Below are positions 3,341 through 8,642 of a stretch of DNA of 22,909 nt, piece after piece. Source of the stretch: Escherichia coli (GTDB lineage Bacteria; Pseudomonadota; Gammaproteobacteria; Enterobacterales; Enterobacteriaceae); NCBI RefSeq assembly GCF_003334305.1, contig NZ_QOWS01000039.1. The stretch is one strand, 5' to 3'. Below the pieces are notes generated by a model. That model searched no databases and was not told the DNA's origin. It was given only the letters and a program-made list of their open reading frames with translations. The number at the start of each line of letters is the position of its first letter. Position 1 is the stretch's first letter. A program made the position numbers and the translations under genes.

Positions 3341-5158
3341 TCACTCCTGCTGAGACTGAATTATTCCTAGTGCGTCATAAATCAGTCTTCTGCGTAGTTT
3401 ATTGTTTTTATCTGCACCATATAACATAAATATATTTTCAACTTTTTCTTCAGGTGTTCTGAGATAATGGATAAGAAAGGTTATCATTCCAACACAATGG
3501 AATAAAGTGAATCCATCAAACAGGCTTATCAGGTTTCCTTTTTTTTCCCGTGTTGTAAGTATTTTTTCGCGGGTAAGAATATTTGCCAGTTCATGGGGGG
3601 CTGATATGTTTCTGCTGTCTATAATGTCATTTATTTTACCAAGGGCTATATCAACTTCCTGTAATAGGTTATTTATCATAGCTGAGTGAATGTTATTGGT
3701 TTCATGTTCCTGACAGTTTATGAACTTATAAATCATTGAGTTATACAGAAATATTACTCTTCCTAATAAATATGTGTTTGTGTCATTTTGAAGACAGGAC
3801 TCTGGGTATTCGTGATCCAGTGAAATAAGGTTAATGGACTCGCCCTGATAAGTCATAAAATAATTGATGTCATTTAATAATGCTCGGATATTTACATGAT
3901 TTTTACTGAATTTTATTTTAAATGCTATCTTTAGTATAGCAAACGCGGCAATGATAAATCCAAAAGGTAATTTCTCATAGTTCAGTTTATTGATGGTGCG
4001 ATGAACACTTTCAGTCTTTCCTGAAGTAAGTTGTCTCAAACAGTTAACAAATTCTGTATAGCCATTTAAGACATAATGGCATGAAGAATCTTTTAAAGAG
4101 TTTTCTATGTTTTGTAATGTGACGCCGTTGTTCAATGTATAAATGTAACCGCCAAAGACAATGTTTTCAATCTCAACGACACAATTTATTGTTTTTTGTT
4201 CAGGATAAAGATAAATATCAGAAATACTATAGTCTCGTATTGCGTCAATGGCATCCCACGATAATGCACTGTCAATTTTCAGTGTATAAAATGGTGAGTT
4301 CTCATTAGGAAAGTAATATATGTATTTGTTCAGTATATTCATTACATCTATTGGGTTGGTTAAATATAATAACTGGCATTCATATTCTGAAACTTCTCTT
4401 TCGCTTATCAGCATTTTATATAAAGTTGCCAGGGTGCTTGTTAATGAAGTTCGTCTTTCGAAAGCCAGTAATATAGTGAGATAATAACATGCAACCTGAA
4501 CTTTATCTAAGTCAGAAATTATTTTTTCCTTGTCTTCATTACTTAAATAAAGCAGATGTTTACAGGTTTCTTTGCATGTGTTGATAGTTGCGATAAGTTT
4601 TGTTTTTCCTGGTGTACTGTTTTTGCGAATATTACGAATGAATTCATATACGCCATCAAAGATATCTTTGAAATGCGCATTCGCTGGCGTGTATCCGGAT
4701 AAACATAACTTAACGTAATTTCGCAGATATGTCCTTGCAGCATGATATATATCATCCTCATTATCCGGTATCTGAGTGAGAAAAGAATGAATATGATAGT
4801 AAAATGCCATCTCATTATCCGGGCGATATGTGTTCCTGATGTCGAGTGCGAGAATCATTGGTACAATGTCATTAAAATATTTTTGTTTTATTATTTGATG
4901 TGTTTTGTCTGTAAAAACAGAATAGTGCATTAGCTTAACATAGAGATCTTCATATCTCCTAAATATAACTTTTCGTTGTTCTTTACTCAATACTTGTTCT
5001 TTATCAATAATGTTTATTAATTCATCAAACATGTCGCCCAGTGAATGTTGATGTGAGGAAAAATTTTTAATATTTCGGATGTCACGGCTATTCTGGTTTT
5101 TAGCCAGAACACCAAAACATGAAAAGACATCATACATTATAGTGATAAAATTATACAT
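3341..5158 (-). CDS. Hypothetical protein, 605 aa, AT-rich orphan cargo gene
   Basis: Single long ORF in a visibly AT-rich segment that contrasts with its neighbours. No catalytic or nucleotide-binding motif recognised by eye. Occupies the position that yfjH holds in CP4-57. Confidence 0.7.
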   Translation of the reverse strand: MYNFITIMYDVFSCFGVLAKNQNSRDIRNIKNFSSHQHSLGDMFDELINIIDKEQVLSKEQRKVIFRRYEDLYVKLMHYSVFTDKTHQIIKQKYFNDIVPMILALDIRNTYRPDNEMAFYYHIHSFLTQIPDNEDDIYHAARTYLRNYVKLCLSGYTPANAHFKDIFDGVYEFIRNIRKNSTPGKTKLIATINTCKETCKHLLYLSNEDKEKIISDLDKVQVACYYLTILLAFERRTSLTSTLATLYKMLISEREVSEYECQLLYLTNPIDVMNILNKYIYYFPNENSPFYTLKIDSALSWDAIDAIRDYSISDIYLYPEQKTINCVVEIENIVFGGYIYTLNNGVTLQNIENSLKDSSCHYVLNGYTEFVNCLRQLTSGKTESVHRTINKLNYEKLPFGFIIAAFAILKIAFKIKFSKNHVNIRALLNDINYFMTYQGESINLISLDHEYPESCLQNDTNTYLLGRVIFLYNSMIYKFINCQEHETNNIHSAMINNLLQEVDIALGKINDIIDSRNISAPHELANILTREKILTTREKKGNLISLFDGFTLFHCVGMITFLIHYLRTPEEKVENIFMLYGADKNNKLRRRLIYDALGIIQSQQE

Positions 5159-5298: not shown

Positions 5299-6061
5299 GG
5301 TGATGCCTTCTGACGATAGATTAATGTTGTATTCTATTGGTATCTGGAGACCATATGGCAACAGTTACAGTATATTCTCCCCGCTGTAATTCCTATAAAG
5401 TGTACCGTTATGATCACAGCACCTCAGATCATGAGCGTTTCCAGTGCTAATCCTGCAAACGTGTATTTCAACTGAATTACATCTACGAAACCCGAAAACC
5501 AGGCATTAAAGAGCAAATTGTTGAAATGGTTCATAACGGAGCCGGGGTTCGCGATAGCTCCAGAACGCTGAAGGTGGATATCAACACCGTCATTCTCACT
5601 TTAAAAAACGCTCACCACGTAAAGTAACCATATCTCCAGCCGCCAGTGTCGATGTGGCACTTATCTGTGAACTTGATGAACAATGGAGTTTTGTCGAAAA
5701 CAAAGCTCGTCAGCAGTGGCACTGGTACGCGTATAAGACCAAAGCTGACGGTGTGCTGGCTTACACTTTTGGTCCTCGCACTGATGAAACATGCCGTGAG
5801 TTGCCGGAATTCCTGAAGCCATTCTCCGCAGGCATGATAACCAGAGACAACCGGAGCAGTTATACCAGAGAAATGCCACAGGATAAGCATCTTGTCGGCA
5901 AGATATTTACCCGGCGCATTGAGCGCAACAATCTGACACTTCGTACTCACATCAAACGACCTGCCCGGAAAACGATTTGCTTTTTACGCTCCCTGGAAAT
6001 TCACGAAAAGCCATTGGTTCATTTATCGAAAACACATGTACTACTGACAGGAGTCATTACC
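5299..6061 (+). mobile_element. IS1-family insertion sequence, about 763 bp, probably defective
   Basis: Ends resemble the IS1 inverted repeats (left GGTGATGCCTTCTGACGATAG; right end ...CAGGAGTCATTACC). InsA-like and InsB-like frames are linked by the canonical A6C frameshift motif TTAAAAAAC at 5602-5609. The flanking 9-mers are not identical, so there is no clean target-site duplication. Confidence 0.75.
5355..5627 (+). pseudogene. insA: insA-like frame interrupted by an in-frame TAA
   Basis: ATG at 5355; in-frame TAA at 5448-5450 after MATVTVYSPRCNSYKVYRYDHSTSDHERFQC; downstream in the same frame ...KPGIKEQIVEMVHNGAGVRDSSRTLKVDINTVILTLKN resembles the InsA C-terminus. Confidence 0.55.
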
Positions 6062-6091
6062 AGGGCCTCTTTTGCTGTTTTTTTGCCATGA
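5654..6091 (+). CDS. insB: insB-like transposase frame of the IS1-family element
   Basis: Translation (ICELDEQWSFVENKARQQWHWYAYK...FTRRIERNNLTLRTHIKRPARKTICF...) parallels IS1 InsB as recalled from memory. It lies in the -1 frame relative to insA. The ORF reads 30 nt past the inferred right end of the element. Confidence 0.6.
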   Translation: MALICELDEQWSFVENKARQQWHWYAYKTKADGVLAYTFGPRTDETCRELPEFLKPFSAGMITRDNRSSYTREMPQDKHLVGKIFTRRIERNNLTLRTHIKRPARKTICFLRSLEIHEKPLVHLSKTHVLLTGVITRASFAVFLP

Positions 6092-6257
6092 ATGATAATG
6101 AGAATCGACAGCGATAAGGGAAAAGTAAAATAACACTAATGCTGTCGTTTTCTATCATATTGATTTTTAATTATTTATTGTCTTTTTTCTCAACCCATTT
6201 TTTTACGCAGACAAATTTACCCGGGGAATACAAACTGTAACGACAGTTCACCACACT

Positions 6258-6566
6258 ATGGGGGATAAAATGCCAGATCAATCCGGACACTGCAGGACTC
6301 CTTCACGCATCTTACGGATGCCTGAACTGAGCCAATTGTTAGGTATATCTCGTTCGACAATTTACGAAAAAATGAATCCGTTATCGAAATACTACGATGC
6401 AACCTTCCCCAGGCCGGTACGTCTTGGTAGTGGTTCTGTGGGCTGGCGTTCATCAGCTATTGACGAATGGCTTACTTTACATACTGTACCTGCCAGATCA
6501 GCAGTCAAAGGTGTTAATGACGAAGTGAGACATACGCTTTCTTCAGATATGACCATGAGCAGATAA
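6258..6566 (+). CDS. alpA: AlpA-family phage transcriptional regulator / excisionase-like DNA-binding protein
   Basis: RILRMPELSQLLGISRSTIYEKMNP...YDATFPRPVRLGSGSVGWRSSAIDEWL matches the AlpA signature (E. coli CP4-57 AlpA, recalled). The true start may be the ATG at 6270. Confidence 0.8.
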   Translation: MGDKMPDQSGHCRTPSRILRMPELSQLLGISRSTIYEKMNPLSKYYDATFPRPVRLGSGSVGWRSSAIDEWLTLHTVPARSAVKGVNDEVRHTLSSDMTMSR

Positions 6567-6741
6567 TTTTTTGTCATCACGTGATCACCTCAGGAGGAAA
6601 AAGAAGCATAAGAACAATTTAGCCAGAAGTTTAATTGATAAACAGAATTTCCAGCATTCATTGTTGAAAGAGCAGCTATTGTCGCTATTGTAGCGGTAAT
6701 TGCTGCTATAACCGAAACGTATTACGAAAAAGGAAGCATTT

Positions 6742-6990
6742 ATGCCTTACATCAAACCGGATATGCCGTATTCAGTATATGCATGACCATCAATGATAGG
6801 GAAGGCAATAATTAAAGCTCAATACAATAAACAAGTACCTCTGACTCTGGTTGCAATGTCAGTATTAACAGCGATGTCAATTGCCTGTCAGAATCAGGTT
6901 GACGTATGCAGTCCCGGAAATTTACGTGGGGCCGTTAATATTTACACTATGGTTCTGGAGAAAGGGAAAAGACCGGGGGGAAGGTATTAG
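6742..6990 (+). pseudogene. Degenerate partial duplicate of the 5' end of the downstream yfjI-like gene
   Basis: The upstream leader 6673-6710 is a near copy of 7139-7180. The coding part (ORF 6793-6990, ...QVPLTLVAMSVLTAMSIACQNQVDVCSPGNLRGAVNIYTMVL) parallels residues about 37-78 of the 7191 gene, but the frame from ATG 6742 hits a stop after 14 codons. Confidence 0.55.
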
Positions 6991-7190
6991 TGAAATAATT
7001 TCTGGAGGTATTAAGAATGAGAAATATGAATGATATTTCGTGGTGAATAATACAGTCTTCACTGAATTAACCTTATCGGTTTATTAAACATCAGATCTAC
7101 AAATGCTCTGTATTTCTCAGAGCATCAGGTCTGAATAGCAGCTATTTTCGCTATTGTAGCGGGATTTGCTGCTATTTTACTAACCCATTA

Positions 7191-8642
7191 ATGAAAAGAG
7201 AGGCTTTTATGTGCTTACTTGCACCAGAAAATCCTTATCCGATATATGCACTACCACCGCTGGTGAGAAATGCAATAATTGAAACTCAAAAAAATACACA
7301 GGCACCTTTGGCTATGGTGGCAACATCCGCATTAACAGCGATCTCAATTGCCTGTCAGAATCAGATTGACGTGTGCAGACCTGGAAATTTACATGGGCCT
7401 GTTAATCTTTACTCTCTGATTCTGGCTGATTCCGGTGAAAGGAAAACGACCGTGGATAAAGTGTTTATGAAAGCATTTTATCTCAGGGATGAAGCCCTGG
7501 CGGAAGAATACGCGAAACTGGTTGAGAATTACAGTACAGAAAAGGAAATATGGGAGCAAAAACAAAAAGCGCTGGAATCAAAATTTCATAAAGAGATTCG
7601 TGCCGGTAAAGATTACAAGGCAACAGAATCAGAGCTTGAAACGCATCTGAATAAACCTCCTGTTCCGCCGCAGATACGTCGAACAATTTTTAATGAGACA
7701 ACGATAGAGGGAATGTTAAAATATTACTCCGATAGCAATCGCTCTTTTGCTCTTGTATCCAGTGAAGGGGGGGTAATTTTTGACAGCCGGGCCATGAGTA
7801 AACTGGGGATTATTAACACTTTGTGGGATGGAGGTTCTCTTTTCATCGACAGGAAATCATCTCCCGGAATTAATTTGAAGGAGCCAAGACTGACGATATC
7901 GGTGATGATTCAGCCTGATGTTTACCACAAAGGTTTTTGTACGCGAAAAAAAGAAATTGTGAAAACGTCAGGACATCATGCAAGGTTTTTGATGTGTCAA
8001 CCAACATCAACGCAGGGGACAAGGATAATAACCGGAGATAATTATTCATCACAGTATCAGGATTTGTTTGAAGAGAGGATCAATGAGCTTATTGATGAAA
8101 GTCTGGCGATGAGTGGTGAACGACGTTGCCTTCACTTTTCTCCTCAGGCTGCCAGAATCTGGACGGATTATTACAATGATGTGGAATCGAAGCTGGGGGG
8201 ATTGGGGCCTTTAAGACATTGCCGGGAATATGCTGCTAAAAATGCAGAGTATATGGCAAGACTGGCAGGACTTATTTACCATTCGAGCGGTGAAGAGGGG
8301 GAGATTTCCCCTTACACTGCAGAAATGGCGAGAGAATTAGCAATATGGTACGGTAATGAGTATGTGCGGTTGTCTAATCCGTTAACTTTTGACAACTCTG
8401 CCCTGACCGTACCTATGCGACTCATTCCAGAGGAGCTTGAACTTTTCAACTGGATAAAAAGCTATTGTATTGAGAAGGGGATCCTCTGTATGAAAAAAAA
8501 TGACATTTTACAGCGTGGTCCGAACCGTTTCCGGAAAAAGGATAAAATCAACTGGTTACTGGATTTACTGTATGAACAAAACAGAGTTGTACCGGTTATT
8601 GAGGGAAAAACGTTGTGTGTCGCACCTAACTTTGACCTCTGA
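7191..8642 (+). CDS. YfjI-like (DUF3987-type) protein, conserved backbone gene of CP4-57-like islands
   Basis: 483-aa ORF directly downstream of alpA. Family assignment is from gene order and recalled similarity, not from a search. The more likely start is the ATG at 7209, which has a GAGAGG ribosome-binding site about 7 nt upstream. Confidence 0.65.
   Translation: MKREAFMCLLAPENPYPIYALPPLVRNAIIETQKNTQAPLAMVATSALTAISIACQNQIDVCRPGNLHGPVNLYSLILADSGERKTTVDKVFMKAFYLRDEALAEEYAKLVENYSTEKEIWEQKQKALESKFHKEIRAGKDYKATESELETHLNKPPVPPQIRRTIFNETTIEGMLKYYSDSNRSFALVSSEGGVIFDSRAMSKLGIINTLWDGGSLFIDRKSSPGINLKEPRLTISVMIQPDVYHKGFCTRKKEIVKTSGHHARFLMCQPTSTQGTRIITGDNYSSQYQDLFEERINELIDESLAMSGERRCLHFSPQAARIWTDYYNDVESKLGGLGPLRHCREYAAKNAEYMARLAGLIYHSSGEEGEISPYTAEMARELAIWYGNEYVRLSNPLTFDNSALTVPMRLIPEELELFNWIKSYCIEKGILCMKKNDILQRGPNRFRKKDKINWLLDLLYEQNRVVPVIEGKTLCVAPNFDL

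Follow-up and report, generated by a model that had tools for sequence, protein, structure and literature searches.

The closest described relative of the locus studied here is the cryptic prophage CP4-57 of E. coli K-12, which has the gene order int, divergent hypothetical gene, alpA, yfjI and yfjJ/Gp2-like, and carries a GCTATT-based palindromic core between alpA and yfjI (4910-4938 of locus L006). Satellite elements are known to replicate from bipartite iteron origins, namely ori and crr in P4 and an ori beside rep in SaPIs. The DUF3987-family helicase of AgaPH is a 5'-3' helicase with Walker A and B motifs that acts as the partner of an element-encoded primase-polymerase (PMC11724360, PMC5862659).

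The stretch of DNA analysed here (22,909 nt of an E. coli contig; the window) has the gene order of CP4-57, and the N-terminus of its YfjI can be aligned with that of the K-12-type protein. In contrast to the window, CP4-57 has only one leader and lacks a partial yfjI copy, and the centre of its core is 1 nt longer; K-12-type YfjI proteins share only ∼30% (BLASTP) to 41% (tblastn) identity with the YfjI of the window. The product of the intact yfjI belongs to PF13148, as do the DUF3987 helicases of AgaPH, but YfjI is uncharacterised, a primase domain is neither fused to it nor encoded next to it in the window, and the protein beside it is of the Gp2/YfjJ type. As in the P4 and SaPI origins, short direct and inverted motifs form two clusters beside a helicase gene, with AT-rich DNA between them; unlike those origins, the core in the window precedes the helicase gene and occurs where alpA is present, and most related islands carry one cluster only. 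A literature search found no paper on a partial duplication of yfjI or on the alpA-yfjI junction core. The duplication is already known as an annotated gene fragment, since RefSeq lists a partial DUF3987 gene that the NCBI PGAP pipeline labels 'DUF3987 domain-containing protein' and 'incomplete; partial in the middle of a contig; missing C-terminus'; that annotation omits both the tandem-copy relation to the adjacent yfjI and the occurrence of the fragment in three island lineages.

A partial second copy of yfjI

Positions 6668-7001 and 7134-7478 are direct copies with 76.5% identity over 293 nt (blastn, E=6.9e-58). The same repeat was seen in a MAFFT alignment, and a repeat finder returned same-strand blocks of 203 nt at 78% and 74 nt at 74% identity with a spacing of 466/467 (features in Table 1). 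The first-pass annotation had proposed a partial tandem duplication of the yfjI leader and 5' coding region, and the pairwise alignment bears this out, because the similarity reaches well beyond the short leader motif. The proposed spacing of about 466 bp also agrees with the offset between the copies (466 nt in the leader, 467 nt in the coding part and 477 nt at the distal end), but the repeat comprises the conserved leader plus ∼90 codons of yfjI (7209-7478 in the downstream copy) rather than the ∼80 codons that had been suggested. An assembly artefact is excluded because the same arrangement is present in 1338 complete E. coli genomes. The two copies are adjacent, significantly similar and on the same strand, as in a simple tandem duplication, yet the end of the first does not abut the start of the second, and 104 nt lie between them.

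Table 1. Features of the duplicated region between alpA and yfjI, in coordinates of the window.
Feature	Position	Strand	Basis or remark
alpA-like helix-turn-helix regulator gene	6270..6566	+	RefSeq annotation of identical locus L001; alignments; tblastn typing
Upstream copy	∼6643 (clear from 6668) to 7001	+	ATG at 6742
Weakly conserved 5' flank of upstream copy	6643..6671	+	alignments; ∼59% identity to L002 flank (own count)
Upstream junction core GCAGCTATTGTCGCTATTGTAGCGGTAATTGCTGC	6672..6706	+	alignments, motif comparison
Remaining upstream leader, degraded ribosome-binding site AAGGAAG	6707..6741	+	alignments
yfjI' pseudogene, ∼90 codons of the yfjI 5' end	6742..7001	+	alignment, lesions, Pfam, dN/dS
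AT-rich filler (30% GC) at duplication junction	7002..7105	+	no source found
Downstream copy	∼7106 to 7478	+	yfjI ATG at 7209
5' flank of downstream copy	7106..7137	+	homologous to upstream-copy flank in L002/L003
Downstream (native) junction core GCAGCTATTTTCGCTATTGTAGCGGGATTTGCTGC	7138..7172	+	inverted-repeat arms, alignments
Native leader, ribosome-binding site AGAGAGG	7173..7208	+	RefSeq start at 7209
Intact yfjI, 477 aa, DUF3987 family, putative island helicase	7209..8642	+	Pfam, RefSeq 'YfjI family protein'

The intact gene (7209-8639) matches PF13148 over model positions 1-363 of 364 (E=3.5e-84), essentially the full domain. Conceptual translation of the upstream copy, with its stop codon read through, matches model positions 1-42 of 364 only (E=1.8e-7). 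The upstream copy is thus a fragment of a DUF3987 family member and not itself a member, and, as it breaks off near the putative Walker A stretch (ADSGERKT), it cannot be a helicase. NCBIfam gave zero matches for the AlpA-like, fragment, YfjI and Gp2-like proteins. The upstream copy was correctly described at first pass as diverged and broken by a stop codon (76-78% identity to the downstream copy), the stop being an in-frame TGA at codon 15 (6784-6786), and it also carries a net 10-nt deletion between ∼6957 and 6990 that shifts the frame. At the 5' end the level of divergence changes sharply at 6672, with blastn homology to L002 and L003, which stand for the two other island lineages with the duplication, beginning at 6671. 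At the distal end homology stops at 7001, where the window reads GTGAAATAATTT and the yfjI gene ATGAAAGCATTT, and, as had been noted, the copy runs into unrelated sequence, which is without a match elsewhere in the window or in related loci.

The disabling lesions differ by lineage, as expected of a dead gene: upstream copies of the L002 lineage have a TGA at codon 76, and those of the L003 lineage combine a +1 insertion and a 12-nt deletion with a TAA at codon 15, which L018 lacks. Selection is also relaxed in comparison with the functional copy. Among upstream copies from different islands dN/dS is 1.05-1.77, whereas the same codons of the downstream copies give 0.3-0.5 and full-length yfjI gives ∼0.2-0.3 among lineages. 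We conclude that the upstream copy is a pseudogene, a drifting relic of the start of yfjI. Some chimeric upstream ORFs (P0004, P0009 and P0010) join a downstream-type N-terminus to the upstream-type end KVLVK*, and therefore sequence has been exchanged between the two copies.

Distribution and discordant divergence

Of 5426 complete E. coli genomes, 1338 carry the duplication with the distal junction and 104-nt filler seen in the window. They represent three diverged island lineages with lineage-specific lesions, and the islands occupy at least two integration sites, including the phoH-side and thrW sites. Because all three share the junction and the filler, the duplication was one old event that was then inherited. 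A single-copy form (L004-type) is found in ∼63 genomes, and its yfjI falls within the clade of the duplicated islands (dS 0.049 to the window and L002, with L003 at 0.24-0.26), so the single copy in L004 is a secondary loss. A scan of IMG/VR with YfjI returned 2 near-identical loci only. The surveys covered E. coli genomes and metagenome samples, and a donor in another genus would escape them.

Divergence between lineages is discordant across the junction. Between the window and L002, alpA is non-homologous at the DNA level, the upstream copy is 13-19% diverged and yfjI only ∼0.4% (upstream-copy distance of 0.13 against a yfjI dS of 0.016). Between L002 and L003, the upstream copy is 9-13% and yfjI ∼10-14% diverged. 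The alpA of the window, upstream of the duplication, is of a different type from that of the thrW-site islands, as aligned with the K-12 and L002 AlpA proteins, and tblastn typing found three alpA types and two yfjI types in several combinations. Discordant divergence and mixed types make module exchange among these islands clear, independently of the duplication. The discordance shows later exchange and not the origin of the duplication. Thus the first-pass annotation was right that the int-alpA-yfjI-yfjJ backbone is mosaic, but its use of the duplication as evidence for how the backbone was assembled does not hold, since an event that predates the split of the three lineages is uninformative on the assembly of this window.

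A dead fragment in a quarter of complete E. coli genomes is of little importance in itself. However, the fragment drifts freely and can therefore serve as a neutral marker, which in comparison with the adjacent yfjI exposes recombination between phoH-side and thrW islands.

The junction core and the filler

A palindromic core of ∼35 nt marks every alpA-to-yfjI junction, including both copies in the window. Four GCTATT-like hexamers, two direct and two inverted, make up this imperfect palindrome, and its pattern, GCTATT-N3-GCYAYT-N1-2-TAGCGG-N-AWTWGC, is absent elsewhere in the window. The combination of direct and inverted repeats conserved across relatives is that of an iteron-type origin or operator motif. 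The core was missing in front of more remote yfjI genes, namely those of Serratia, of Budvicia and of E. coli islands in which yfjJ precedes yfjI. When metagenomes were scanned with the general pattern, 85 of 120 loci were chance matches without alpA or yfjI, and the remainder came from the same E. coli lineages and a few K-12-type variants. A scan of GTDB species representatives with the window-type pattern gave 5 chance matches in unrelated taxa and none in enterobacteria.

As RNA, the + strand of the upstream core is predicted to fold into a hairpin of -20.3 kcal/mol (z = -1.8) and that of the downstream core into one of -22.1 kcal/mol (z = -3.4); part of the downstream stem together with TATTTTAC was flagged as terminator-like. 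By our own reading, changes in the hairpin are one-sided (C-G to U.G) or break a pair, with zero double compensatory changes, and Rfam, at the gathering threshold and at E<=1, returned nothing relevant but a spurious miRNA model. A 9-nt unit of the upstream core, GCTATTGTC, is present in 2 copies in the window, 4 in L015 and 6 in L014, and match lengths indicate that 3 copies probably occur as well. Constraint on the upstream core was considered and rejected, because its variability (6 of 35 positions) did not differ significantly from the neutral baseline of 28% (P=0.10).

The filler between the copies contains a GGAGG (7004-7008) and a 9-codon mini-ORF, MRNMNDISW* (7017-7046), both of which are conserved, and a 23-mer at 7073-7095 that is invariant among the three lineages. 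A further predicted hairpin, ATGCTCTG-N7-CAGAGCAT (7103-7125), starts in the last 3 nt of the filler and extends into the flank of the downstream copy. Among the 5426 complete E. coli genomes the filler occurs solely in the context of the yfjI duplication. Searches for its source by blastn-short and by Smith-Waterman alignment with shuffles, against the window, L001, L004, L006, L013, alpA genes and the remainder of yfjI, gave nothing robust, and the idea that the mini-ORF is a decayed 3' end of alpA was unconvincing. The L003 filler agrees with the K-12 CP4-57 spacer before the junction core at 24 of 32 nt (shuffle p ∼0.007), a match that loses significance once the number of comparisons is corrected for, and the similarity of the window and L002 fillers to the K-12 alpA-yfjI spacer is weak and non-significant (p ∼0.2). 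Variable columns are proportionally fewer in the filler (19 of 115) than in the pseudo-coding part (71 of 253; P=0.003). Low variability together with the conserved mini-ORF and GGAGG could reflect constraint, although part of it may instead come from mosaic ancestry.

Origin of the duplication

The upstream copy is probably non-functional, the remnant of a partial duplication that happened once and long ago. By illegitimate joining, an ancestral island with the order int-alpA-yfjI-yfjJ would have acquired, in one step and after codon ∼90 of its resident yfjI, a further alpA-proximal flank followed by the core, the leader and yfjI, with ∼104 nt of AT-rich filler at the joint. The truncated upstream copy, lacking nearly all of the DUF3987 helicase domain, would have been dead from the start and have drifted neutrally since. 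Three island lineages would then have inherited the arrangement, which homologous recombination may have shifted between chromosomal sites, with occasional exchange of sequence between the copies and at least one loss of the duplication. Comparison of the two copies gives a dN/dS of 0.56-0.82 and a dS of 0.30-0.44, the dN/dS estimates resting on 70-80 codons and being blurred by inter-copy exchange. A back-of-envelope calculation predicts (1+0.3)/2 = 0.65 if the upstream copy died at once and ∼0.3 if it had first been a working allele in another island. The observed range fits immediate pseudogenisation, and a foreign donor is therefore not needed. We infer that one allele, or two almost identical ones, supplied both copies at the time of the event, as in an in-situ tandem duplication or an unequal exchange between sister copies, and that the yfjI fragment does nothing by itself. 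The 104 nt of filler, which a simple unequal crossover would not be expected to leave, count against such a crossover and leave some room for a foreign donor. An in-situ duplication is indistinguishable from a junction between two near-identical copies of the island.

A rather unlikely, though not negligible, alternative is that the fragment was the resident yfjI of another island lineage, displaced by an incoming spacer-leader-yfjI segment with an illegitimate left junction. Such a displacement would account for a filler that does not derive from the local island and, the downstream unit bringing its native upstream region along, for the resemblance of the L003 filler to the K-12 spacer, but that resemblance is weak in the window and L002 and is lost on correction. 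Islands demonstrably swap modules, and synonymous divergence between the copies exceeds the deepest found among downstream copies (0.15-0.25). Nevertheless, none of the 5426 E. coli genomes has a full-length yfjI that resembles the upstream copy more than the adjacent gene does, matches to it above ∼78% are other upstream copies only, and a collection of 5.8 billion proteins (word-filtered, 30 candidates scored) yielded only fragments of 52-94 aa and no closer full-length YfjI. The dN/dS between the copies is also about twice the value expected for divergence of working genes, and an event older than the split of the three lineages is not specific to the window. The view of the region as a recombination scar between two related islands stands as far as a recombination relic with a dead upstream copy is concerned, but in these collections neither copy matches another island lineage better.

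We also considered whether the duplication was kept for what it does. It is improbable that the core is a key cis site (an operator, attenuator hairpin or iteron-type origin for AlpA, YfjI or YfjJ) and that the duplication persists as a second, copy-number-variable site with the pseudo-coding part and AT-rich DNA as spacer; if it were so, the second core and spacer would tune helicase expression or replication. Consistent with this idea, two cores 466 nt apart flank an AT-rich stretch that is less variable than the pseudo-coding part, both are retained in all three lineages, the 9-nt unit of the upstream core differs in copy number between islands, the core is conserved even where flanks are unalignable and YfjI is at ∼30-40% identity, and the duplicated form far outnumbers the single form. 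However, the latter abundance is mostly clonal (O157, O111 and ExPEC lineages), slippage needs no selection to vary the number of 9-nt units, conservation of the upstream core does not significantly exceed the neutral baseline, islands with a single core persist (K-12, L026, L027 and L004), and the core has no known binding protein, transcript or origin activity. Least probable by far is a functional small protein, either the 65-aa ORF at 6793-6990 or a truncated YfjI N-terminus that regulates the helicase. RefSeq annotates the ORF, and intact versions of 75-87 aa exist in some strains (P0001, P0006 and P0010), but dN/dS among upstream copies is at least 1, ORF boundaries, starts and frames vary by lineage (65, 50 or 75 aa, or pseudogene), stops and frameshifts are particular to each lineage, and the ORF in the window begins at an internal ATG that lacks an evident ribosome-binding site.

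For a relic of a partial duplication, the naming of the leftover 65-aa ORF as 'DUF3987 domain-containing protein' is annotation noise, and such calls are a cautionary case. The alpA-yfjI core is undescribed so far and may be worth a simple binding or reporter experiment. In the window a Mokosh system is carried on this alpA-yfjI backbone, which is very common among E. coli defence islands.

The repeated start of yfjI and its distribution

The first-pass annotation had described two copies of the yfjI leader and 5′ coding region, the upstream one broken by a stop codon and passing distally into unrelated sequence, and each of these points was confirmed. The segment 6660-7000 aligned with 7125-7470 in MAFFT, a repeat finder reported two families of direct repeats (203 nt at 78%, spacing 467 nt; 74 nt at 74%, spacing 466 nt), and blastn gave 76.5% identity across 293 nt (E=6.9e-58). 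The repeat takes in ∼90 yfjI codons. The upstream copy, a yfjI fragment, carries a TGA at codon 15 and has lost a net 10 nt, and beyond 7001 it gives way to 104 nt of 30% GC without another match (the filler).

Features of the window around the yfjI repeat
Feature	Position	Remarks
RtT-like repeat	1597-1733	− strand, directly upstream of integrase; Rfam RF00391, 46.3 bits, barely over gathering score
IS1 transposase remnant	∼5300-6100	degraded
AlpA-like regulator	6270-6566	
Upstream copy	∼6643-7001	clear from 6668; ATG at 6742
Upstream junction core	6672-6706	
TGA, codon 15	6784-6786	
Net 10-nt deletion	near 6957-6990	
Filler	7002-7105	
GGAGG and 9-codon ORF	7004-7046	
23-mer	7073-7095	
8-bp hairpin	7103-7125	
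Downstream copy	∼7106-7478	yfjI ATG at 7209, the RefSeq start
Downstream junction core	7138-7172	
Intact yfjI	7209-8642	Pfam DUF3987, model positions 1-363/364, E=3.5e-84
Near-invariant tract of yfjI	7431-7550	
Gp2/YfjJ-type gene	9463-10026	
MkoA	10677-15647	Mokosh, 1656 aa, PADLOC E=0
MkoB	15644-17080	Mokosh, 478 aa, PADLOC E=2e-151

In the window lies an E. coli island that adjoins phoH and the RtT-like repeat, with the order integrase, divergent 605-aa gene, IS1 remnant, alpA-like gene, yfjI fragment, yfjI, Gp2/YfjJ-type gene and Mokosh pair. DUF3987 proteins are predicted mobile-element helicases, with one case demonstrated (PMC5862659, PMC11724360). Even with its stop read through, the upstream copy matched only DUF3987 model positions 1-42/364 and so cannot be a helicase.

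Of 5426 complete E. coli genomes, 1400 matched the 2.5-kb alpA-to-yfjI segment and 1338 contained the filler, which was confined to this context. The yfjI fragment is already annotated: RefSeq labels it a short "DUF3987 domain-containing protein" or an incomplete pseudogene. The duplicated arrangement exists in three diverged versions: that of the window, at the phoH-side site, and two at thrW, the L002 and L003 types, whose identities to the window are, respectively, 85% and 76% in the upstream copy, 90% and 87% in the filler, and 97% and 90% in the downstream copy. A single-copy junction is found in ∼63 genomes (L004 type) and also in K-12 CP4-57. The YfjI clade of the window is tight, with members at least 89% identical and the nearest outside relatives at most 36%. 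Synonymous divergence (dS) of full-length yfjI was 0.016 between the window and L002, 0.049 between L004 and either of these, and 0.24-0.26 between L003 and each other locus. Because L004 yfjI is nested among duplicated lineages, its single-copy state is most simply explained by secondary loss.

Origin and decay of the upstream copy

All upstream copies share the same end point and subsequent filler. Their lesions differ. The window lineage has the TGA at codon 15 plus the 10-nt deletion, and the L002 lineage has a TGA at codon 76 alone. In the L003 lineage codon 15 reads TAA (CAA in L018), there is a +1 insertion and 12 nt are deleted. By the Nei-Gojobori method over 70-80 codons, dN/dS was 1.05-1.77 among upstream copies, 0.31-0.50 among downstream copies and 0.56-0.82 between the two (dS 0.30-0.44). 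A value of ∼0.65 is expected for this last comparison under immediate death of the upstream copy (working-gene omega ∼0.3), and ∼0.3 under its divergence as a functional gene in another island; the observed range, with wide error, favours immediate death.

The earlier reading, a recombination scar between two related islands, was right in kind, but a donor of a different lineage is neither required nor found. In the proposed comparison with other island lineages the upstream copy had no closer allele: apart from other upstream copies, none of the yfjI sequences in the E. coli genomes exceeded ∼78% identity to it. A word-filtered search of 5.8 billion proteins with the least-damaged upstream peptide, in which just 30 candidates were scored, returned fragments of 52-94 aa alone. 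Four upstream-copy ORFs of other strains (P0004, P0009, P0010 and P0002) are chimeric, with a downstream-type N-terminus and an upstream-type C-terminal end (KVLVK* in the first three, which were among the fragments returned); they show sequence exchange between the two copies and indicate gene conversion. Taken together, the comparisons are best read as one old event followed by inheritance and decay. The fragment is an old partial duplicate of the yfjI start that has been inherited widely and is decaying neutrally, and the earlier reading erred in using it to explain the assembly of this particular backbone. Module exchange does occur, but what demonstrates it lies elsewhere than in the duplication.

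Exchange between islands and the alpA-yfjI junction core

Divergence between the window and L002 falls stepwise (16%, 8%, 0.4%): DNA-level homology is essentially absent in alpA, followed by 13-19% divergence at 6692-6889, 5-10% at 6890-7177 and ∼0.4% from 7178 to ∼8870. L002 and L003 are near each other on the alpA side and ∼10-14% apart in yfjI. Upstream-copy distances (0.13 window to L002, ∼0.1 L002 to L003) conflict with those of yfjI (0.016 and 0.25), and L002-type islands are therefore recombinant, with a crossover at ∼6890-7178. These thrW islands have a yfjI near-identical to that of the phoH-side island together with L003-type alpA and upstream fragment, a pattern that points to recombination across chromosomal sites, between islands at one and the other. 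In three metagenome contigs (L079, L140 and L068), L002-like alpA (∼70% aa identity) lies beside K-12-like yfjI (74-79% aa), with the conserved core at the joint. The types of alpA and yfjI assort independently, and the core lies at the module boundary.

The core, GCTATT-N3-GC(T/C)A(T/C)T-N1-2-TAGCGG-N-A(A/T)T(A/T)GC, was present at all alpA-to-yfjI junctions examined (K-12 L006, 4910-4938; L026, 2610-2632; L027, 2507-2529; L068, L079, L140, L004 and both window copies), including those with unalignable flanks and YfjI identity of just 30-40%. It is an imperfect palindrome of ∼35 nt with two direct and two inverted GCTATT-like hexamers. Islands that lack alpA and have yfjJ-to-yfjI order did not carry it upstream of yfjI, and the window holds no further core beyond the two copies. 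As RNA, the + strand has a predicted fold of −20 to −22 kcal/mol (z = −1.8 and −3.4) and, owing to G.U pairs, folds more stably than the − strand; reading the junction alignments by eye, we saw no double compensatory changes. Neither an Rfam family nor literature on the core was found. Against the neutral baseline, the upstream core showed no significant excess of conservation (6/35, P=0.10). Its left arm contains a 9-nt unit, GCTATTGTC (6675-6692), which is present in 2 copies in the window and has expanded within the window lineage to 4 copies in L015 (∼2608-2647) and 6 in L014 (2608-2660), and match lengths suggest that 3-copy forms exist too; no such copy-number variation was found in the downstream core. 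We regard the junction core as the sole lead worth keeping, its doubling by the duplication being incidental.

A near-invariant tract of ∼120 nt in yfjI spans and slightly passes the duplication endpoint at 7478; it is nearly unchanged across all lineages including L003, with flanking coding sequence differing by 10-14%, and could be a recombination tract or reflect unusually strong constraint.

The filler and the island cargo

No source of the filler was found in the window, the related loci or the 5426 genomes. The L003 filler resembles the K-12 spacer that immediately precedes the core (24/32 nt, shuffle p ∼0.007), whereas the window and L002 fillers do not (p ∼0.2). Across the three lineages 19 of 115 filler columns vary, against 71 of 253 pseudo-coding columns (P=0.003, segments picked post hoc); low variability is strongest at the GGAGG with its ORF and at the 23-mer, also post hoc segments, and arises in part because the window and L002 share more recent ancestry there. 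The strong Shine-Dalgarno-like GGAGG is followed after 8 nt by the ORF MRNMNDISW*, in which the three lineages differ by a single synonymous substitution and by the use of TGA or TAA as the stop; it may encode a leader peptide, derive by decay from the 3′ end of alpA, or have arisen by chance. The 23-mer TTATCGGTTTATTAAACATCAGA, with an internal GATC, is unchanged in all three. The hairpin ATGCTCTG-N7-CAGAGCAT, 3′ of the 23-mer and just upstream of the native core, is poorly preserved in L002 and L003.

The RtT-like repeat, which has two copies at the reference locus, probably belongs to the attachment-site region. The IS1 remnant, between the divergent gene and alpA, is frameshifted with an internal stop in the RefSeq annotation of L001 (strain 504838). 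The cargo at 10677-17080 is a Mokosh anti-phage system of type I. In L001 one of its genes is truncated by ISEc52 and bears the annotation of a partial nuclease-related pseudogene.
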